64,000 bases of DNA from an uncultured Oscillospiraceae bacterium (GTDB lineage Bacteria; Bacillota; Clostridia; UMGS1883). Location of the stretch: positions 8,203-72,202 of the forward strand of contig CAYLPQ010000003.1 in assembly GCA_964385605.1 (NCBI GenBank), in the 5' to 3' direction. The position numbers were made by a program, and so were the translations under genes. Positions 527 to 59,839 of the stretch are shown here, in pieces (the first letter of the stretch is position 1; each line of letters begins with the position of its first letter). The notes under the pieces were generated by a model. It was not told where the DNA came from, did not search any database, and saw only the letters and a program-made list of their open reading frames with translations.

Positions 527-572
527 AGAAAACTGCGTACTTTGGGGACAGTCCCCAAAGTGCGCAGTTTTG
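527..572. terminator. bidirectional hairpin terminator between the XRE gene and clpC
   Basis: 19-bp stem aactgcgtactttggggac / gtccccaaagtgcgcagtt (531-549 / 551-569, one mismatch), flanked by an A-run and a T-run. Confidence 0.75.
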
Positions 573-5111: not shown

Positions 5112-6002
5112 ATGAAAGAATATAACAAAATTTCCTCGCCGCCACTGATTGAGGCGGATTCAATTATATATATTGTAAACGACAAGCTTGCATCCTCGAT
5201 TGTTGAATATCCCGGCAGATACAGCTTCTGGCAGTTATACCTGGTCACCGAAGGGGAGGTGCGTATCAGCCGCGATAACGAGGATTTGTGCATAAAAGAG
5301 GGGAATATGTTTCTTCTTTCTCCTAAAGGCGACCTGCGCACAGCAAAAAAGGCAATTGATAAGGACGGCAGGTTTTTCGTAATTTCCTTTGAAAGCAAGT
5401 CCGATGCCTTGCAGGAAATGTGCGAAAGGGAAATTCCTCTTTCACCCGCAGAGCGCATACCTGTTGAGGAAATCTGCTCTACAGGAATAAAGGTGCTTCA
5501 GCCCATAAAGCACAACGAGGAAAAACAGGGATTAAGGGAGAAAAATACATCACATCCCGCAGTGCTTCAGTATATGAAGGTTTCTCTCGAACAATTTTTA
5601 CTCAAAATTTATTGCCGTGAAATGGACATCAGAAGTATGGGCAATGCAAAGGAAAAAGCCAACCGTCAGAACTACGAAAAAGGCATTGTCCGCCGGGCGG
5701 ATGAGTTTATGCATAAAAACGTGTGTGAGAAGCTTTCTATAAATGACATTGCACAAGCGCTTGCTGTAAATAAAACCACTCTGCGAATATCATACAAAAA
5801 AGAAACGGGTGTAAGCATTATAAAAGCATTTTCAAGGATGAAAGTTGCCGAGGCACAGCACCTTATAGCAGAAACGGATATGAACTTCACCCAGATTGGT
5901 GAGGAATTGGGATTTTTGTCGCTGTATCACTTTTCGCGGTTTTTTAAAGAAAATATGGGTATAACACTTTCGGAATATAGTAAGGAGATAGCAAAAAAAT
6001 AG
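5112..6002 (+). CDS. AraC-family transcriptional regulator (cupin sensor plus HTH)
   Basis: C-terminal AraC HTH (LSINDIAQALAVNKTTL...YHFSRFFKENMGITLSEY). AAGGAG lies 9 nt upstream of ATG 5112; the track ORF starts at 5106. Confidence 0.85.
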   Translation: MKEYNKISSPPLIEADSIIYIVNDKLASSIVEYPGRYSFWQLYLVTEGEVRISRDNEDLCIKEGNMFLLSPKGDLRTAKKAIDKDGRFFVISFESKSDALQEMCEREIPLSPAERIPVEEICSTGIKVLQPIKHNEEKQGLREKNTSHPAVLQYMKVSLEQFLLKIYCREMDIRSMGNAKEKANRQNYEKGIVRRADEFMHKNVCEKLSINDIAQALAVNKTTLRISYKKETGVSIIKAFSRMKVAEAQHLIAETDMNFTQIGEELGFLSLYHFSRFFKENMGITLSEYSKEIAKK

Positions 6003-6027: not shown

Positions 6028-6062
6028 GCTATCAGTTTTTATTCATATAAATGCGTCATCTC

Positions 6063-6089
6063 AAAAATTCCCCAATTTGGGGAATTTTT
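6063..6089. terminator. palindromic hairpin (CCCCAA..TTGGGG family)
   Basis: aaaaattccccaa / ttggggaattttt. Lies between convergent genes. Shares the CCCCAA-TTGGGG core with the hairpins at 531-569 and 30179-30217. Confidence 0.65.
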
Positions 6090-6094
6090 TATAT

Positions 6095-8980: not shown

Positions 8981-8995
8981 ATATTATTAAACCCA

Positions 8996-9051
8996 AAAGA
9001 GGCTGTAGCAAAACGAATAAATATTTATTCGTTTTGCTACAGCCTCTTTTT
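8996..9051. terminator. perfect 56-nt palindrome / bidirectional terminator
   Basis: aaaagaggctgtagcaaaacgaataaat is followed by its exact reverse complement. Lies between convergent genes. Confidence 0.85.
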
Positions 9052-9054
9052 TGA

Positions 9055-11361
9055 TTATTCCAGTATTATTCCTTCATACGAAGTTCCGCCTGATGTCTGA
9101 TACATATTTTTAAAGCAGTATGTCACACCGCTTGATGTGATATTAAACGAAAGATACTGCATATTTTCGACTATACTTTTTACCGAGCCGCAATCCTTGG
9201 AATCGGCAACGGAAATATAACGGACTCCGTTTTTCAATTTCACGGCATTTTCATCACCGCAGTAAACTACAAATACATTTTTGTTCTTTGCGGCAGTTTG
9301 TATCATATTGTCAAAAGCGACACCGTCAATATATGCCTCAAATCCCGGCTCTGAATCAAAAAGCAAAATCAGATTCTTCTGTGCCGCGCCAGAGAGAACT
9401 GTATTAAGCTGTGACCACTGATTTCCGCGGCTGAATAAGCCTTTGTCAGACAAATCAACGGAAACAACCTTTGTATTCTCATAATTGTGCTCGCTCCAGG
9501 TTTGCGCCGTTATGGAAGAAATTCCGTCAGGGGTAAATTCGTTTATAAATTCACCGCCGACTATTGCCGAGGCACCGCCCTCGCGGAAAAGCTTCATTCC
9601 CTGTGCGTAAATAAGCCTATCAATAAGAGTTGTTGACGGGGTACTTGCGAGAACATTAAATGAAAATCCTCCGGACTCATTTTTGTACAATTCATCATTT
9701 GTCACTGCGTTAAGGATGGGGGCATCATACTCCCCGCAGGTGATTTTTATGCTGTTAAATGCGCTTCCGTAAGAAAAGGTGAGGTTTCCGCCGCCTTCAC
9801 GGAGAGCCTTTACACTATTTCCAGAAAGGGATATAAACGAGGAATCGTACACAGGATTAAGCAGTCCGAGGTTATTCACCGTTGCAGTATTTCCGTATTT
9901 ATCAAATACACAAACACCTTTTATCGTAGCACTTTCGCCTGTATTAAGAGTGAAAGCCGCAGGTGCTGTTATTCCGCACACATCGCTGATAACGGTAATC
10001 TCGCAGGAGTCGGTTACTTTTCCGTTATAGTAAAGCTCAAGCACTGTTTTTCCATCGCCCGACGCATAATAAATATCGTCCCTGACAGATCCGCTTCCCT
10101 CTGCCACTTTCCACTCATAAGGGTAAGGGGTTGAAACGGGTTTGTTGAAGTTCACATCGTAAGGGATAAGGTTAAGCTTCACACTGTCTCCGGAAAGAAC
10201 ATATTCACTTGCAGGACTTACATAAAATCCCACTGTCTCACCGCTTTGTGCTGTAGAAGTAACAGCAACTGCGTTTATTACCTTACGGTTTTCCGACGGG
10301 CTGTTAATATGGTGAAGCTCGCTGTTTGAAAGAGTTTTTGCAACCATCGCCGTAGAACCGCCGCCATCGAAATTCATGGCATTAACCATACCTGCTTCAA
10401 GGCATATGTCAGCAAGTGTTCCCAGAGTAACACCGCGGCTTATAGTCTGCCGTCCGTCAACAGTCAGAAGATATACAACTGTTCCGTCAGCATTTGTACC
10501 GATTGCCGTACGGGGGTTGTTGCCGGCAACATCGTGAGTTATTGTTGTTTTTACACCATCTTTAAGAAGAAGTGTACCTCCGCCAAAGGCGGTGTCAACA
10601 TCTTTTATAAGCTCTGCTTCACTCAAAGACACATTCACATTGTCACCTACATTGAAGTTATACTCCAGAAAAGGCGTCATATTATCATCAATTACAAGAA
10701 TATAGCCGTTTTCAGGAATCTGTATCGTTCCACCCTGACTTACACCCTTTGCCGTAACAATATCGTTTTCCACGGTAAGCGCCGTTATTCCCACAGGCAA
10801 AAACGGGGAAATGCCACCGTTAAATTCCGCAGTATACATAAGAACTGCACCGTAATAGTCTGTAGGCTTGTTAATATGCGCAAGGGCTGACGATGCACCA
10901 TTTGGCGCAGTTACGGTTCCTGTAAATTCAAGATAAGAAAACGCAAGGGAATTGTCACGGAAAAAGCCTGCCGCCATATCGGAATTAATATGGGACTGCA
11001 GAAGCTCCCCGTCCTTTACTTCAAGACCCAGGCTGAAGTTCTGATTGCCTTTATAAGCCGAAAAAAAGTCTGCATTTGTTGCCGCAACAACGTTTTGTCC
11101 GGCTTTTGCAAGGTTGATTACCGTATCAACCTTGTCACATCCTCCGGAATTTTTCAGAAGGTCCAGAGAAATATACTCGTTTTTTAAGTCAGCCGTAATA
11201 AGATTTATATTAAGGGAATAATCACCGTAAAATTTCTGTATGTTCGTACGGGTTACTCCGCCTGTTATAGTTTCTTGAGTAGTTTTTGTGTAAAGAGGCT
11301 GTGCAAATACACTTTGACAAAAAAGCATAAACACAGCAAAAAAAGAAATCAGCTTTTTCAC
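9055..11361 (-). CDS. secreted phosphodiester glycosidase (NAGPA/DUF2233) family protein with Ig-like repeats
   Basis: Signal peptide MKKLISFFAVFMLFCQSVFA and core motif AIGTNADGTVVYLLTVDGRQ...MNFDGGGSTAMV. GTG start 8 nt after AAGGAGG. Confidence 0.8.
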   Translation of the reverse strand: MKKLISFFAVFMLFCQSVFAQPLYTKTTQETITGGVTRTNIQKFYGDYSLNINLITADLKNEYISLDLLKNSGGCDKVDTVINLAKAGQNVVAATNADFFSAYKGNQNFSLGLEVKDGELLQSHINSDMAAGFFRDNSLAFSYLEFTGTVTAPNGASSALAHINKPTDYYGAVLMYTAEFNGGISPFLPVGITALTVENDIVTAKGVSQGGTIQIPENGYILVIDDNMTPFLEYNFNVGDNVNVSLSEAELIKDVDTAFGGGTLLLKDGVKTTITHDVAGNNPRTAIGTNADGTVVYLLTVDGRQTISRGVTLGTLADICLEAGMVNAMNFDGGGSTAMVAKTLSNSELHHINSPSENRKVINAVAVTSTAQSGETVGFYVSPASEYVLSGDSVKLNLIPYDVNFNKPVSTPYPYEWKVAEGSGSVRDDIYYASGDGKTVLELYYNGKVTDSCEITVISDVCGITAPAAFTLNTGESATIKGVCVFDKYGNTATVNNLGLLNPVYDSSFISLSGNSVKALREGGGNLTFSYGSAFNSIKITCGEYDAPILNAVTNDELYKNESGGFSFNVLASTPSTTLIDRLIYAQGMKLFREGGASAIVGGEFINEFTPDGISSITAQTWSEHNYENTKVVSVDLSDKGLFSRGNQWSQLNTVLSGAAQKNLILLFDSEPGFEAYIDGVAFDNMIQTAAKNKNVFVVYCGDENAVKLKNGVRYISVADSKDCGSVKSIVENMQYLSFNITSSGVTYCFKNMYQTSGGTSYEGIILE

Positions 11362-13035: not shown

Positions 13036-13060
13036 AATTTAAACCTCCGTTTTTTTAAGT

Positions 13061-13095
13061 TTGAAATGTGAAATTCGAATTTCGCACTTCGCATT
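13061..13095 (-). repeat. tandem heptamer array (5 units)
   Basis: Plus-strand units: TTGAAAT GTGAAAT TCGAATT TCGCACT TCGCATT. Same family as 20884-20918, 20992-21019, 36373-36393 and 43235-43262. Confidence 0.7.
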
Positions 13096-13107
13096 TAATT
13101 TTTGCCT

Positions 13108-13139
13108 TTTTGCGCTCTGGAGCTTTTTAACATCTCCGT
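13108..13139 (-). repeat. stop-adjacent conserved box, copy A
   Basis: Minus-strand reading is TAA-AC-GGAGATGTTAAAAAGCTCCAGAGCGCAAAA, directly after the rlmB stop. 28/29 identical to 50183-50211. Confidence 0.8.
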
Positions 13140-30070: not shown

Positions 30071-30178
30071 GAAAACAAAATTGAAGCATGCCGCTTCAGC
30101 CACGTCGCGTTCCAATTAAATTTAAAACCAACAAATTGTTGCTCGCAATGAAAGTATACGATTTTCTATACAAACAAA

Positions 30179-30217
30179 ATTCCCCAATTTGGGGACAGTC
30201 CCCAAATTGAGGAATTT
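30179..30217. repeat. 19-bp-stem hairpin of the TTTGGGGACAGTCCCCAAA family
   Basis: aattccccaatttggggac a gtccccaaattgaggaatt. Its 17-nt core is identical to the one at 541-557. Confidence 0.8.
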
Positions 30218-30230
30218 TCATTTTGTATTC

Positions 30231-43262: not shown

Positions 43263-44593
43263 TATTTTCCGAGACAGAATTTTTCGAAAATCCTATTTAC
43301 TGTTTCCTGATTTATACTAATTCCCTCGGCTTCACCTAAAAATGCAGTAGCCTGTTCAATATCAATGGCGCAAAGATCACTGAAAAATCCGTCATCAATA
43401 GTATTTTTGGCTTTTTTTATACATTCTGTTCCTCTTACAACTGCCTCAAACTGTCTTTCGTTGGCTATAAAAGCAGTGCTTTCGGAAGTTCCTATAATTT
43501 TTGAAATAGCTTTTTTAATTTCTTCTATTCCTTTTTCTCCTTTAGCGCTTACAGATAGGTATTTATCATCTTTATTATCTATTAAATCAGTCTTATTTGC
43601 AACAAAAATACAATCTTTTTCTTTTATTATTTCAAGAATTTCTTTTTCTTCGTCGGTCAATTCTTTTCCGGATTCCGTTACAAAGATACATATATCGGCA
43701 TTCTTTATATAATCATAGGATTTTTCAACACCTATGTTTTCTACAACATCTTCACTTTCTCTTATACCTGCAGTATCGCCGAATTTTACAGGTATTCCTT
43801 CAATATCAGCATACTCCTCAACAACATCGCGGGTTGTTCCCGCTATATCTGTTACAATAGCTTTGTTTTTTTCTGTCAGAGCATTTAACAAAGAGCTTTT
43901 TCCCGTGTTTGGAATACCGCATATTGCGCAGGTTATACCATTATTAAGAGCTTCACCCCGGCGGGCTGATTTTTTAAGGGATTCCAGTCTGTTTAATACA
44001 GAATCCAGCTTTTCCGAAAGCTCACCGCCGGCAAATGCATCAATATCCTCTTCCGGAAAATCACTCGAAACCTGGATTGCGGCAAGGAGGTCAAGAAGAT
44101 CCTCTCTGATTTTTATAATAGGCTTTGTAATTCCGCCCTCAAGTCTGTTTACAGCAGCATACAGCGCCTCATCTGTTTTTGAATTTATAACATCATTTAC
44201 CGCTTCAGCTTCAGTAAGGCTTAATTTACCGTTGAGAAATGCCCTTTTTGTAAATTCACCCTTACCTGCCATAGAAGCACCATTTTCTATAAGTGCATCT
44301 ATAATTCTTTCCACACTTACCATAGACCCGTGACAGCTTATTTCGCAGACATTTTCTCCTGTAAAGGAGTTAGGTGCACGAAATACACTGACGAGACATT
44401 CATCAATCACTCTGTTTTCAAAACAAGCCTTGCCATAAACTATGGTATATCCGTCAGCATCTGTTATCTTTTTATTCGATTTAATGACTTTTTCAGTTAT
44501 TGAGAGAGCATCATTTCCACTTATTCTTATAACTGCGATGCCACCTTTTCCACGGGGGGTAGAGAGGGCACAAATTGTAGTGTTATCAGTCAT
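43262..44593 (-). CDS. mnmE: tRNA modification GTPase MnmE
   Basis: TrmE N-domain, G-domain (GIPNTGKSSLLN, DTAGIR), and C-terminal FCLGK. Start at ATG 44593; the track ORF starts at 44641. Confidence 0.95.
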   Translation of the reverse strand: MTDNTTICALSTPRGKGGIAVIRISGNDALSITEKVIKSNKKITDADGYTIVYGKACFENRVIDECLVSVFRAPNSFTGENVCEISCHGSMVSVERIIDALIENGASMAGKGEFTKRAFLNGKLSLTEAEAVNDVINSKTDEALYAAVNRLEGGITKPIIKIREDLLDLLAAIQVSSDFPEEDIDAFAGGELSEKLDSVLNRLESLKKSARRGEALNNGITCAICGIPNTGKSSLLNALTEKNKAIVTDIAGTTRDVVEEYADIEGIPVKFGDTAGIRESEDVVENIGVEKSYDYIKNADICIFVTESGKELTDEEKEILEIIKEKDCIFVANKTDLIDNKDDKYLSVSAKGEKGIEEIKKAISKIIGTSESTAFIANERQFEAVVRGTECIKKAKNTIDDGFFSDLCAIDIEQATAFLGEAEGISINQETVNRIFEKFCLGK

Positions 44594-44736
44594 ATTTTCA
44601 CTTCCAATATTAAAAAATAAGAGGTAAAAGTATTTTCTCATAAGATATTATCTTACAAGAAAGACCTTTCACCTCTTTCTCACTTTATTAAAGTTATTTC
44701 CGAGCTCTTTTTGAGGCGCTCAAAAATGGTGTGGAA

Positions 44737-44805
44737 CTTACGAACTGAACCGAAGGGTTACCCGAAAGTGTACGTGGGTACACCGAGAGGTGAAGTTCGT
44801 GAGTA
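44737..44805 (-). repeat. structured ~70-nt element, copy 2 (homologue of 50238-50309)
   Basis: Minus-strand reading is ACTCACGAACT-[47 nt]-AGTTCGTAAGT. 11-bp closing stem, with interior about 70% identical to copy 1. Confidence 0.7.
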
Positions 44806-44942
44806 GAATTTGGATAAAATTTAAAATTCGTGTAACGAATTTTTTCTATAAACAATAAAACTCACTTTGTTTTATTGTTTTATAAAATCAAATAATCTAA
44901 TTTACTGTTTCCAAATGCGATCAATGCCGTTTTTCAGCCGAC

Positions 44943-45635
44943 TCAAACTCCCTCGAGTTCGTTTTCTTTACGATTATATCTGTACTTTGAAACATAATCG
45001 TCTCCATATTCCTTTTTCTTTGTTGTTATAACGATACAACGGTTAGGATCCTTACCTGTAGAATATGTTGTAATATTTCTGTACTCCTGAAGTGCTGAAT
45101 GAATAATTCTTCTTTCGTTAGGATTCATAGGCTCAAGAGTAACACTCTTTCTGCTTCTTGAAACAACTCCTGCCATTCTTTTTGCAAGCTTTATAAGAGT
45201 TTCTTCTCTCTTACCTCTGTAATTTTCAGTGTCGATTGTAACTCTTATATAATCTTCCTCATCCTTATTTACAACAAGTGATGTAAGATACTGAAGTGCA
45301 TCAAGTGTATCGCCGCGTCTGCCTATTACCTTACCCACAGCTTCGCTGTCACCAACGATTTCAATATTTACAGTTTCATCCTCATACGAAGACTTTATTT
45401 CTGTTTCAATACCGAAATTATCCATTACACTTTTAACGTATTTTTCGGCTTTCTGAAGGGGATTTTCCTCCATCTTAACTCTTACCACTGCATTTTCTGC
45501 ACCGAGACCGAGGATTCCTCTTTTACCTTCATTTACTACTTCTATTTCTACATTCTCTCTGTCAGTATTAAGCTCAAGAAGTGCTGCATTAACGGCTTCA
45601 TCAATTGTTTTACCGCTTTTTTCTATAATAATCAT
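44943..45635 (-). CDS. jag: RNA-binding protein Jag/KhpB (Jag_N, KH, R3H)
   Basis: 230 aa. N-terminal Jag domain and C-terminal R3H (ERRIIHSAL). Confidence 0.9.
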   Translation of the reverse strand: MIIIEKSGKTIDEAVNAALLELNTDRENVEIEVVNEGKRGILGLGAENAVVRVKMEENPLQKAEKYVKSVMDNFGIETEIKSSYEDETVNIEIVGDSEAVGKVIGRRGDTLDALQYLTSLVVNKDEEDYIRVTIDTENYRGKREETLIKLAKRMAGVVSRSRKSVTLEPMNPNERRIIHSALQEYRNITTYSTGKDPNRCIVITTKKKEYGDDYVSKYRYNRKENELEGV

Positions 45636-49080: not shown

Positions 49081-50181
49081 ATGAAATTTTTCTGCGATAC
49101 AAAAAATCTTTCGGAAGCTATTAATATTGTTTCCAAGGCTGTTGCCGTTAAATCACCCATTCCTCATCTTGAGGGAATTCTTCTTACAGCACAGGGCGGT
49201 ACTGTAACATTACTTGGTAACAATCTTGAAATTTCAATTAAAACAACTATAAGTGCAAATATTCAGGAAGAGGGAAGTATTGTTCTTAATTCAAAGATGT
49301 TTTCAGACATTGTAAGAAAGCTCCCCCAGGATGTTTGTGAAATAACAACTAATGAAAAAAATAATGTTTCTATTGTTTGTCAGAATTCAGATTATAAAAT
49401 TGTAGGTCTTAATGCTGATGAATTTCCCCAGCCTCCCCAGATTGCAAAGAAAAGCACTATTGTTTTAAAGAGTGAAAAACTCCGTGAAATAATAGGAAAA
49501 ACGTTGTTTGCTGTTTCTATGGATAATGCAAGAAAAATCCTTACAGGCTCCCTTTATGAAATTGAGAACAATAATCTTACAGTTGTTGCAGTTGACGGAT
49601 ACCGCCTTGCCCTTACAAAGATGGAGCTTGAAGGAGACCATGCAGATGCTAAATTTATTATTCCCGGTAAAACGCAGAGCGAAATTTCAAAAATTATAAG
49701 CGGAAGTGAAGATTCCGATATAGTTATTTCCTTTAGCGATAACTATGCTCTTATAGAGGGTGAGGGAATTATTATTACATCACGTCTTATAGAGGGTGAG
49801 TTCTTCTCTTACAGAAATACAATTCCTTCAGAATCAAAATATATTATTAAAACAGACTGTTATTCTTTCGGTAAAGCTATTGAAAGAGTTGAGCCTATTA
49901 TTGATGAAGTAAGTAAAAACTGCGTAAGATTTAAATTTGGTAACGGAAAAATAAACATAAGCTGTGAAACAGTTCTCGGTAAAGTAAATGACATTGTTGA
50001 ATGTGAATATTTCGGTGAAGATATAGAGATAGGATTTAACTATAAATACCTTCATGATGCTGTTTCTAGATGTGACAGCGATGAAATTGAGCTTAAGATG
50101 AATTCTCCATTCAATCCTCTTATTATAAATTCTCCGGAGGATGACAGTTATCTGTATATGGTATTACCTGTAAGAATATGA
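49081..50181 (+). CDS. dnaN: DNA polymerase III beta sliding clamp
   Basis: 366 aa, three-domain beta clamp. Canonical position after dnaA. Confidence 0.97.
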   Translation: MKFFCDTKNLSEAINIVSKAVAVKSPIPHLEGILLTAQGGTVTLLGNNLEISIKTTISANIQEEGSIVLNSKMFSDIVRKLPQDVCEITTNEKNNVSIVCQNSDYKIVGLNADEFPQPPQIAKKSTIVLKSEKLREIIGKTLFAVSMDNARKILTGSLYEIENNNLTVVAVDGYRLALTKMELEGDHADAKFIIPGKTQSEISKIISGSEDSDIVISFSDNYALIEGEGIIITSRLIEGEFFSYRNTIPSESKYIIKTDCYSFGKAIERVEPIIDEVSKNCVRFKFGNGKINISCETVLGKVNDIVECEYFGEDIEIGFNYKYLHDAVSRCDSDEIELKMNSPFNPLIINSPEDDSYLYMVLPVRI

Positions 50182-50182
50182 C

Positions 50183-50211
50183 GAGATGTTAAAAAGCTCC
50201 AGATCGCAAAA
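50183..50211 (+). repeat. stop-adjacent conserved box, copy C
   Basis: TGA-C-GAGATGTTAAAAAGCTCCAGATCGCAAAA. 28/29 identical to the reverse complement of 13108-13136. Confidence 0.8.
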
Positions 50212-50236
50212 CGAATTTCGGATTGATTCGTTTTGC
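50206..50236 (+). repeat. hairpin GCAAAACGAAT...ATTCGTTTTGC
   Basis: 11-bp stem. The arm sequences plus the following TAC are shared with the 56-nt palindrome at 8996-9051. A related hairpin lies at 59653-59676. Confidence 0.65.
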
Positions 50237-50237
50237 T

Positions 50238-50309
50238 ACGCACAAACGTCACCTCGACGTACCCACCACGTATGCCTTCGGTTCCGCCCTTCGGGATTCG
50301 TTTGTACGT
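50238..50309 (+). repeat. structured ~70-nt element, copy 1
   Basis: ACGCACAAACG-[50 nt containing TCACCTC, TACCCAC and CCCTTCGGG]-CGTTTGTACGT. Its 11-bp stem covaries with copy 2 at 44737-44805. Confidence 0.7.
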
Positions 50310-50375
50310 TCTGAAACTTTTTTCCTGTCTCTTTGGAAGTTTTAAAAATATAATTTTTAAAAAATAGGTGTAGTT

Positions 50376-50579
50376 ATGATTATAGAAATAAACACAGAAT
50401 ATATAAAGCTTGATTCTGCTTTGAAGTTTGCAGGAATTGCGGAAAATGGTGCTCACGCAAAGGAGCTTATTCTTGACGGACTTATAAAGGTAAACGGTGA
50501 GGTTGAGTTGAGAAGGGGAAAAAAGCTTTATAAAGGAGACAAATTCAGAATAGAAGACGAGGAATTTGAAATAGGATGA
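50376..50579 (+). CDS. yaaA: S4-domain RNA-binding protein YaaA
   Basis: 67 aa with an S4 fold (IKLDSALKFAGIAENGAHAKELI..VNGEVE.RRGKKL). Conserved dnaN-yaaA-recF order. Confidence 0.88.
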   Translation: MIIEINTEYIKLDSALKFAGIAENGAHAKELILDGLIKVNGEVELRRGKKLYKGDKFRIEDEEFEIG

Positions 50580-59762: not shown

Positions 59763-59839
59763 TGGCGTGCTTGGAGGGATTCGAACCCCCGACCCTTTGG
59801 TTCGTAGCCAAATACTCTATCCAACTGAGCTACAAGCAC
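59763..59839 (-). tRNA. tRNA-Arg (anticodon ACG), CCA encoded
   Basis: Minus-strand cloverleaf: GTGCTTG TA GCTC AGTTGGATA GAGT A TTTGG CTACGAA CCAAA GGGTC GGGGG TTCGAAT CCCTC CAAGCAC G CCA. Confidence 0.93.

Follow-up and report, generated by a model that had tools for sequence, protein, structure and literature searches.

REP elements carry a conserved GTAG tetranucleotide, and REP and MITE families usually run to tens to hundreds of copies. ERIC elements occur in variants with internal insertions of about 70 bp. Compensatory changes are common in the single-stranded DNA hairpins of REPINs, which form tandem clusters and persist at orthologous sites (PMC3116915). ERIC and Correia elements end in defined terminal inverted repeats with TA at the termini and are flanked by target-site duplications, and MITE/ERIC transcripts form long stem-loops with orientation-dependent effects on neighboring transcripts (PMC2229807). 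The pneumococcal BOX, RUP and SPRITE elements are terminator-like, clustered and mutually inserted (PMC10969869). The structured element described here is likewise a dispersed repeat; its copy number appears low, and it is neither origin-specific nor gene-specific. The clade that carries it consists of uncultured gut Clostridia represented by Congzhengia-like MAGs.

Two copies of a stem-loop had been drawn by a sequence-only reading of the window, that is, the whole 64-kb stretch of DNA analyzed here, and pattern and covariance-model searches found these two core copies only. The first copy occupies 50238-50309 on the plus strand, exactly as drawn. The second was given on the right strand but with coordinates one base too high; it runs from 44736 to 44804 on the minus strand and not from 44737 to 44805. 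As that reading held, an 11-bp stem closes both copies, and double compensatory changes distinguish them at stem positions 3, 7 and 11. The interiors, put at about 70% identity, are 68-77% identical depending on the choice of denominator. A C·A mismatch at stem position 4, as the copies were drawn, is indeed common to both, but it is a U·G wobble on the folding strand and thus not a mismatch. Across the units of the family, this position is occupied by U·G, G·U, G-C, C-G or A-U.

Both copies lie in short spacers of the origin region, the first within a unit in the dnaN-yaaA spacer (unit 1) and the second within a unit in the jag-mnmE spacer (unit 2). Near the origin, rpmH, rnpA, yidD, yidC, jag, mnmE and mnmG are encoded on the minus strand, while the plus strand carries dnaA, dnaN, the gene of a 67-aa protein with an S4 domain, recF and gyrB; Pfam labels assigned to the orthologues back this naming. 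The minimum of the cumulative GC skew falls at ~48 kb, in the stretch that separates the rpmH-side genes from dnaA, and the two copies are therefore on opposite replichores, in agreement with the sequence-only reading.

The stem-loop is not the self-contained element of ~70 nt that it had been taken for; it is one branch of a three-armed unit of 150-240 nt. Arms that can pair with the sequence on both sides of the stem-loop are present in the flanks of 10 copies. Directly 3' of the upstream stop codon lies a motif, for example AAAAAAGCGCAGA-CC-ACACAAGGCAA, whose halves are complementary to the 5' and 3' neighbors of the stem-loop. Read from 5' to 3' on the folding strand, the unit consists of A0, an A-run, the GC-rich helix A, the stem-loop, helix B and an insert, followed by B', a GG linker, A', a U-run and A0'. 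The insert comprises an A-run, one or two hairpins that often have an AATTCG...CGAATT motif in common, and then AT-rich sequence; units without insert also occur. The window contains two full units, together with a half unit and a minimal relative (Table 1). The plus-strand C·A mismatches in helix A of unit 1 are G·U pairs on the minus strand. The arm of the half unit differs from that of unit 1 at one of 15 positions, and neither partner arms nor a core accompany it. The arms of helix B of unit 1 reappear at 9008-9037, and in the hairpin of the minimal relative exact copies of these arms stand together with GGCTGTAGC, an outer motif seen in units from other genomes.

Table 1. Coordinates of the repeat units and their parts in the window.
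Feature	Position	Folding strand	Description
Full unit 1	50183-50331	-	Three-way junction without AT-rich insert; immediately 3' of the dnaN stop codon (50179-50181)
Unit 1, helix C (stem-loop, copy 1)	50238-50309	-	Assigned by covariance model R1 and pair counts; encloses a small junction made up of H1 (hairpin), P2 (helix), a GA-rich internal loop and P4 (hairpin)
Unit 1, P1	50238-50248 with 50299-50309		
Unit 1, helix A, 3' strand	50191-50203	-	Plus-strand reading AAAAAGCTCCAGA; pairs with 50310-50323 (TCTGAAACTTTTTT)
Unit 1, helix A, 5' strand	50310-50323	-	Within 50310-50331
Unit 1, outer helix A0	50324-50331 with 50183-50188	-	
Unit 1, helix B	50206-50236	-	11-bp hairpin GCAAAACGAAT / ATTCGTTTTGC with 9-nt loop
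Full unit 2	44710-44947	+	3' end overlaps the jag stop codon
Unit 2, helix C (stem-loop, copy 2)	44736-44804	+	
Unit 2, P1	44736-44746 with 44794-44804		
Unit 2, H1	44748-44759		
Unit 2, P4	44768-44783		
Unit 2, helix A, 5' strand	44722-44735	+	AAAAAUGGUGUGGA; pairs with 44921-44934 (UCAAUGCCGUUUUU); three or four G·U pairs
Unit 2, helix B and insert	44806-44918	+	44806-44814 pairs with 44910-44918; insert of 95 nt, AT-rich
Unit 2, hairpins of the insert	44823-44843 and 44850-44880		Two terminator-like hairpins, each flanked by an A-run and a T-run
Half unit	13057-13139	-	Directly 3' of a stop codon; arm GGAGATGTT-AAAAAGCTCCAGA-GC-GCAAAAAGGCAA matches unit 1; tip hairpin with AATTCG motif
Minimal relative	8988-9057		27-bp palindromic hairpin between A-run and T-run

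The family was assembled as a set of 13 units, 12 of them independent, from related Clostridia MAGs and assemblies. With the insert swapped for GAAA in 12 units, RNAfold gave one and the same three-way-junction topology throughout. Unguided RNAalifold of 11 units recovered A0, A, P1, P2, P4 and B, with 47 pairs of which 25 show compensatory double changes; 93% of the cells in this alignment pair, and none of 500 shuffles reached the observed value on any measure. Among 10 distinct cores, 97.1% of the cells pair, and nine pairs have changed on both sides, a result again reached by 0 of 500 shuffles. The sequence of helix B is wholly different between subfamilies, yet its pairing is always kept. 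The A0 sequences differ among units (GGGGAT, AGGGC, AAGGCT, CTAGGCT and GGATG), and within a subfamily the inner arms, A and B, keep their sequence. H1 ranges from 2 to 11 bp in length, and P4, which has two double changes of its own, is closed by a GUGG, UUUU, AAAG or GUGGUGG loop. The GA-rich internal loop (CGAAG / CGAGA) and an ACC...GG(U/C)GA helix are almost invariant. The compensatory changes among paralogous and orthologous copies indicate selection on structure and not on sequence, as had been argued from the two window copies.

The strand on which the stem-loop folds, however, is the opposite of the sense strand first proposed. The stem mismatches on the strand drawn first are A·C or C·A, and they turn into G·U or U·G on its reverse complement. 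When each arm was aligned to the reverse complement of its partner with wobble disregarded, the transition-type mismatches on the folding strand amounted to 36 G·U versus 3 A·C (binomial p=3.6e-8, with copies that are not fully independent); folding thus takes place on the strand complementary to the one drawn before. Covariance model R1 scored the core of unit 2 with 89.6 bits on the plus (folding) strand and 15.5 bits on the minus strand, and the core of unit 1 with 65.7 bits on the minus (folding) strand and 15.5 bits on the plus strand. The predicted folding energies have the same preference, with -57.1 kcal/mol (z -4.7) versus -42.8 kcal/mol (z -1.8) for unit 1 and -72.4 kcal/mol (z -5.6) versus -62.7 kcal/mol (z -3.7) for unit 2 by RNAfold. 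For the 73-nt hairpins, the values are -26.9 and -31.7 kcal/mol on the folding strand versus -17.1 and -22.5 kcal/mol on the other, and in each of the 12 units with GAAA in place of the insert the folding strand is more stable by 5-23 kcal/mol. Together, these comparisons show that the capacity to fold as a single strand is maintained on one defined strand. A mutational bias was considered as the cause of the G·T excess and rejected; C-to-T change on the leading or non-transcribed strand predicts G·T on the strand drawn first, opposite to the observation, and the units occur in both orientations.

This assignment bears directly on the reading of the element as a cis-acting RNA stem-loop that is sense to dnaN and jag, regulates the adjacent genes, and contains UUCG tetraloops and a TCACCTC resembling the anti-Shine-Dalgarno sequence. 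TCACCTC is invariant in 11 of the 13 cores, with TCGCCTC in L007b, L150 and L151; CUUCGG motifs are present on the sense strand, and the non-folding strand is codirectional with the upstream gene in 8 of 12 independent units. These motifs were read on the non-folding strand, however; the folding strand has GAGGUGA and CGAAG in their place. The sense strand has A·C mismatches and scores 15.5 bits versus 66-90 bits, and the z-scores of copy 1 there are only -0.8 and -1.8. In most units, moreover, the core lies downstream of a hairpin and T-run on the sense strand, the neighboring genes are unrelated, and the element is missing from the matching spacers of close relatives. We thus regard regulation by a sense-strand stem-loop as highly improbable. 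A riboswitch or other 5'-UTR cis-regulator was rejected on account of the unrelated neighbor genes, the occurrence in both orientations and the location at gene 3' ends. Two further ideas were also discarded. For a small ORF behind GAGGTGA on the folding strand, neither the starts nor the peptides, read by eye, are conserved between the copies. For mimicry of the 16S rRNA 3' domain (ACCCGAAGUCG, GGUGAAGU), the 10-11-mer matches are expected by chance and lie outside the family consensus.

A pattern of interior motifs common to both window copies was run against 185,579 species with one genome each, and it returned 11 matches where about 2.5 were expected by chance by our own estimate. Three of them fall in unrelated high-GC genomes, approximately the number that chance would give. 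The other eight are in MAGs labeled Congzhengia sp. or 'Clostridia bacterium', and all eight have the 11-bp closing stem, which was absent from the pattern specification. The MAG JAZNSC01 has three copies on three contigs. The strict interior pattern finds one to three matches per genome and misses diverged and core-less units, and a single scan of JGI metagenomes gave one true match only (L016). A covariance model of the core added diverged copies at L007 7407-7474, at L150 2181-2261 in the mnmE-mnmG spacer and at L151 14685-14762 in the gyrB-gyrA spacer. An interior of 47 nt is identical in three species.

The element matches no known RNA family, as the sequence-only reading had supposed. 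In Rfam 15, tRNA was the sole match over the whole window at gathering thresholds, and for both copies with flanks no match at E<=10 overlapped either of them; in seven related loci, 6S RNA and SpF59 sRNA were the only matches, neither of them on a unit. A known RNA family was rejected on these grounds, and so was a self-cleaving ribozyme, which likewise has no Rfam match and for which the junction strands do not contain a hammerhead core. The core pattern found no match in IMG/VR, and blastn against plasmids and phages returned nothing. The arm pattern gave at least 120 viral matches, none with a palindromic partner, and these were put down to chance. A phage or plasmid origin was rejected accordingly.

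The distribution of the units is that of a repeat. All of them are intergenic, with the arms A0, A and B inverted such that they form a long hairpin, and they directly follow stop codons, in both orientations relative to the genes. The neighboring genes are unrelated and include dnaN, jag, 6S RNA, gyrB, mnmE, an AdhE-like gene and a lipoprotein gene, among others. One unit sits directly 3' of the 6S RNA gene. Both multiple copies per genome and presence/absence polymorphism at orthologous sites are seen. The dnaN-yaaA spacer, filled by unit 1 in the window, is 7-16 nt long in L010, L019/L020 and L022 and about 8-12 nt in L149, L151 and L152, and it holds an unrelated repeat of ~200 nt in L028, L150 and L153; L028 has a DnaN 94% identical to that of the window. 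The jag-mnmE spacer contains a unit in the window and in L010, a remnant in L150, the same unrelated repeat in L152, a different insert of 113 nt in L019 and 148 nt without a core in L022, and there is no repeat in this spacer of L149, L151 and L020. The very short origin-region spacers of these genomes have thus been colonized repeatedly by at least two unrelated repeat families.

The units are also modular. In core-less units (downstream in L011, and at 60-175 of L005), B' and A' are joined by GG, which pairs with CC of the other arm. Half units or remnants, made up of the stop-codon-proximal arm and the tip hairpin, occur at 13057-13139 of the window, in the jag-mnmE spacer of L150 and downstream of L007. 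Several full units directly adjoin further complete or partial units. An inverton, in which the inverted arms would enclose a promoter, was rejected; the mismatches are strand-asymmetric and the orientation of the insert is constant in all copies.

Comparison of the filled dnaN-yaaA site of the window with the empty site of L010 defines a 179-nt insertion (50178-50356) between GTAAGAAT and TTAAAAAATAGG, with no unambiguous direct repeat at its flanks. TA flanks some unit ends only. A conserved terminal inverted repeat was not found among the units, the outermost A0 being variable, while TGTAG, TGTCG or TGT stands beside the A-run arm in many units without being invariant. In agreement with the sequence-only reading, for which the termini of a transposase-bearing mobile element would have been the alternative, no unit forms the inverted termini of such an element, and no unit carries an ORF. 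Stop-to-stop frames from 403 kb (the window and related loci) gave no significant phmmer match to a Y1 transposase or RAYT, with a best E-value of 0.38; this is a weak test, with IS608 TnpA and E. coli RAYT as the queries.

These observations bear on the proposal that the units function as single-stranded DNA only, as REPIN-like hairpins for an HUH (Y1) transposase/RAYT or for a replication or priming protein. Strand-specific folding and frequent compensatory changes are features of REPINs as well (PMC3116915), and full-length transcription of the folding strand is unlikely in several contexts. The TGTAG / TGTCG that adjoins the arm in many units resembles the GTAG of REP elements, and H1 of some units has C(GAA)G loops, which form very stable mini-hairpins in DNA. 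Beyond the empty Y1 search, though, the A-run/T-run polarity found in 13 of 13 units is meaningful for RNA, as in a terminator, and not for DNA, and G·T pairs, which destabilize DNA, are conserved here at fixed positions. The folding strand is also the leading-strand template in three of four independent near-origin insertions and the lagging-strand template in one. On this evidence, a role confined to single-stranded DNA seems to us rather unlikely, though it is a live alternative.

An indication of constraint comes from the orthologous site of unit 2 in L010, whose DnaN is 86% identical to that of the window. The 5' strand of helix A is identical in unit 2 and its orthologue, and the cores agree at 64 of 69 positions; four of the five differences make up two compensatory pairs, and the fifth is one junction base. 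Helix B is shifted on both arms with pairing kept. The arms and core are 90-100% identical, while identity drops to ~60% in the AT-rich insert, and an indel of 38 nt separates the two in the adjoining spacer. This pattern indicates either purifying selection in place or homogenization from other copies. The strong conservation of the core suggests a sequence-specific function beyond termination or selfish spread.

Another reading makes each unit a structured non-coding RNA, trans-acting or protein-binding, transcribed from the folding strand, with the core as the functional part, the helices and the insert as a scaffold, and dispersal by gene duplication or by carriage on a repeat. Tolerance of G·U on one strand only, with wobble pairs at fixed positions, would be expected of such an RNA, and the length variation of H1 and the changes of the P4 loop at fixed positions resemble those of true RNA families. 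Conservation of the core across species at the orthologous locus while the nearby spacer diverges fits as well, as does the apparently low copy number per genome. In contrast, there is no conserved promoter upstream of the folding strand: only weak, non-conserved matches to a dedicated promoter were found, and the 38-nt indel between the window and L010 falls in that very region. None of the genes around either window copy has the same sense as the folding strand, and in L004, L006 and L016 a terminator lies directly 5' of the unit on that strand. The existence of core-less and half units, the inconsistent gene neighborhood and the absence of units from close relatives, including the dnaN-yaaA spacer at 94% DnaN identity, are further arguments against an RNA gene. 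We consider a non-coding RNA family a minority reading, rather unlikely though to be taken seriously.

The best explanation, which we hold with moderate confidence, is that the stem-loop forms one branch, highly conserved but optional, of a mosaic, terminator-like palindromic intergenic repeat that is mobile within a narrow clade of gut Clostridia. The GC-rich helix A is preceded by an A-run on its 5' side and followed by a T/U-run of 3-7 nt on its 3' side in 13 of 13 units, and most units have a tip hairpin followed by a T-run on the non-folding strand. The units are missed by a simple terminator scan because their stems are long-range or AT-rich. The repeat would spread non-autonomously, presumably via a single-stranded intermediate and an enzyme acting in trans, and the conserved three-way-junction core would be the likeliest recognition module. 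Once inserted, a unit may act as an asymmetric bidirectional terminator or 3'-end structure. Transcripts of the non-folding strand would stop at the tip hairpin and T-run with no need of arm pairing, so that A·C mismatches could be tolerated there, whereas transcripts of the folding strand would stop only at the long-range helix A and its U-run, so that pairing, including G·U, would be maintained on that strand.

The recurrent half units, in which the stop-proximal arm and the tip hairpin are retained, are consistent with this terminator model. The terminator role would nevertheless be redundant in L004, L006 and L016, since the terminator that precedes the unit there, immediately 5' on the folding strand, is an ordinary bidirectional one. 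The orientation of the independent units relative to the upstream gene, 8:4, does not support a strict terminator design, several U-runs have a length of just 3-4 nt, and the near-invariance of ~50 core nucleotides across species is unexplained by the terminator model. Counting against a mobile repeat are the seemingly low copy number, with two full units in 64 kb, the lack of a clear target-site duplication or conserved terminal inverted repeat, and the search for a transposase or RAYT that came up empty in 403 kb. Recognition by a protein, be it a mobilizing enzyme or a host factor, is the likelier role of the core.

A bolder reading is that the core, defined by P1, the variable H1, P2, the GA-rich internal loop, P4 and the fixed wobble pairs, is a new structured RNA or single-stranded DNA module with a protein partner of its own, for example a nuclease, a transposase or an RNA-binding protein. 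We view this as unlikely. If it were so, the units may represent a class of branched replicators in Firmicutes or a class of non-coding RNA on terminator-like repeats, and they would lend themselves to the study of how a branched nucleic acid is recognized strand-specifically and would provide a test of mobile repeats as a source of terminators for compact genomes. Independently of the partner, the family is a structured repeat absent from Rfam, from an uncultured gut clade in which such elements are essentially undescribed. It also illustrates that a 'covarying hairpin' seen in two copies may be just the most conspicuous part of a larger mosaic repeat, and that the type of mismatch, A·C or G·U, can reveal the folding strand from sequence alone.

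The closest described systems share many of these properties. The REP/BIME/REPIN elements of Enterobacteria and Pseudomonas and the units described here are alike in being intergenic imperfect palindromes located just after stop codons, in which a pair of inverted arms folds into a long hairpin and the spacer enclosed is less conserved, and both show compensatory changes, tandem clusters, mosaic modules and persistence at orthologous sites. The units differ from REPINs in that no RAYT was found with them and their copy number is seemingly in the units and not in the hundreds. In place of the simple hairpin of a REPIN, they form a three-way junction with a conserved branch of ~50 nt; their host is a Firmicute, and there is zero sequence similarity.

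With ERIC/IRU and Correia (NEMIS) elements, the units have in common an imperfectly palindromic sequence of 100-200 bp whose co-transcription yields long RNA stem-loops, and the ERIC variants with an insertion of ~70 bp parallel the units with and without the 70-nt branch. The termini of the units vary, however, unlike those of ERIC and Correia, no clear target-site duplication was found, there is no similarity in sequence, and no parent insertion sequence is known. Intrinsic, and especially bidirectional, terminators are resembled by every unit in its GC-rich stem between a 5' A-run and a 3' U-run, by the tip hairpins followed by T-runs and by the location at gene 3' ends. In contrast to a terminator loop, the 'loop' of a unit is branched, conserved in sequence and 120-200 nt in size; several units have a U-run of only 3-4 nt, and the family is repeated and polymorphic in its presence.

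The BOX, RUP and SPRITE elements are similar in their Firmicute host and modular build, BOX being composed of boxA, a variable number of boxB and boxC. SPRITE resembles Rho-independent terminators as the units do, and BOX, RUP and SPRITE are clustered and inserted into one another (PMC10969869). The optional module of the units differs from theirs in being a structured junction that is strongly conserved across species, and the sequences are not similar. To our knowledge, the strand-asymmetric wobble pattern has not been reported for BOX, RUP or SPRITE. The family is best classed as a new one among the structured, mosaic intergenic repeats and is comparable to REPIN/BIME, BOX/SPRITE and ERIC, to which it adds a conserved branched module.

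Along the folding strand of unit 1, the three-armed palindromic repeat in the dnaN-yaaA spacer, a promoter-like match is directed into the unit. The −10 box of this match lies partly within the opening codons of the S4-domain gene in the yaaA position and is not conserved in the related locus L010; therefore, the match is probably fortuitous.

Coordinates of the features in the window and in related Clostridia loci (L)
Feature	Locus	Position	Strand	Details
Promoter-like match	window	50379-50407	-	TTTATA, 17-nt spacer, TATAAT; 10/12
Possible mnmE leader	window	44594-44700	-	upstream of mnmE
Palindromic hairpins	window	529-571, 6058-6094, 30167-30227
tRNA gene	window	59766-59839	-	Rfam RF00005, 67.3 bits
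6S RNA gene	L004	812-996	-	Rfam RF00013, 100.3 bits
Second repeat family	L028	1303-1506
Second repeat family	L150	9102-9259, 12742-12939
Second repeat family	L152	1682-1884, 10694-10884
Second repeat family	L153	2056-2256

We also observed a second structured repeat family of ~200 nt in the relatives, which is unrelated to the three-armed units and follows the pattern …GGATG.CAA.G.CATCCTTTCG…GTTAAAAACGAGG…CCCCCGTTTTTAAC…GTCAAGGGG…CCCCTTAAC…. It is held in short post-stop-codon spacers of the same kinds (dnaN-yaaA, gyrB-gyrA and jag-mnmE), and an nhmmer search found no copy in the window. L019 and L020 come from two assemblies whose DnaN is identical, yet a 113-nt insertion distinguishes their jag-mnmE spacers (L019 ~5600-5771, L020 5713-5771). 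This insertion includes CCCCCAATCTTGGGGG plus further hairpins and resembles a third type of small insertion. The ATAAAAAA on either side of it may be a target duplication. Among the compared loci, L010 (JAZPYX010000041.1) and L152 (JAZPYX010000097.1) carry two different dnaA-dnaN origin regions under one MAG accession, with DnaN 86% and 85% identical to that of the window, respectively; more than one strain or species, probably two, is likely to have been binned together here.

The region upstream of mnmE, whose protein likely starts at 44593, is almost unchanged in sequence across L010, L149, L150, L151 and L152. It contains two hairpins, AGAAAGA-GGTGAAAGG-TCTTTCT and AAGATAATATCTT, as well as a short in-frame upstream ATG (MRKYFYLLFFNIGSEN...) that precedes the MnmE start. 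The region could function as an mnmE leader or attenuator. Elsewhere in the window, the palindromic hairpins have CCCCAA/TTGGGG(AC) as a common core, which is bordered by A- and T-runs, and look like a recurrent bidirectional terminator type of the source genome.

At the Rfam gathering threshold, the tRNA gene is the only match in the window. For the mnmE upstream region, the sole Rfam match is a weak, sub-threshold one to Ms_IGR-2 (22.5 bits, E=0.006). In L004, a repeat unit starts exactly at the end of the 6S RNA gene, and the tip hairpin of this unit may provide a terminator or processing context for 6S.
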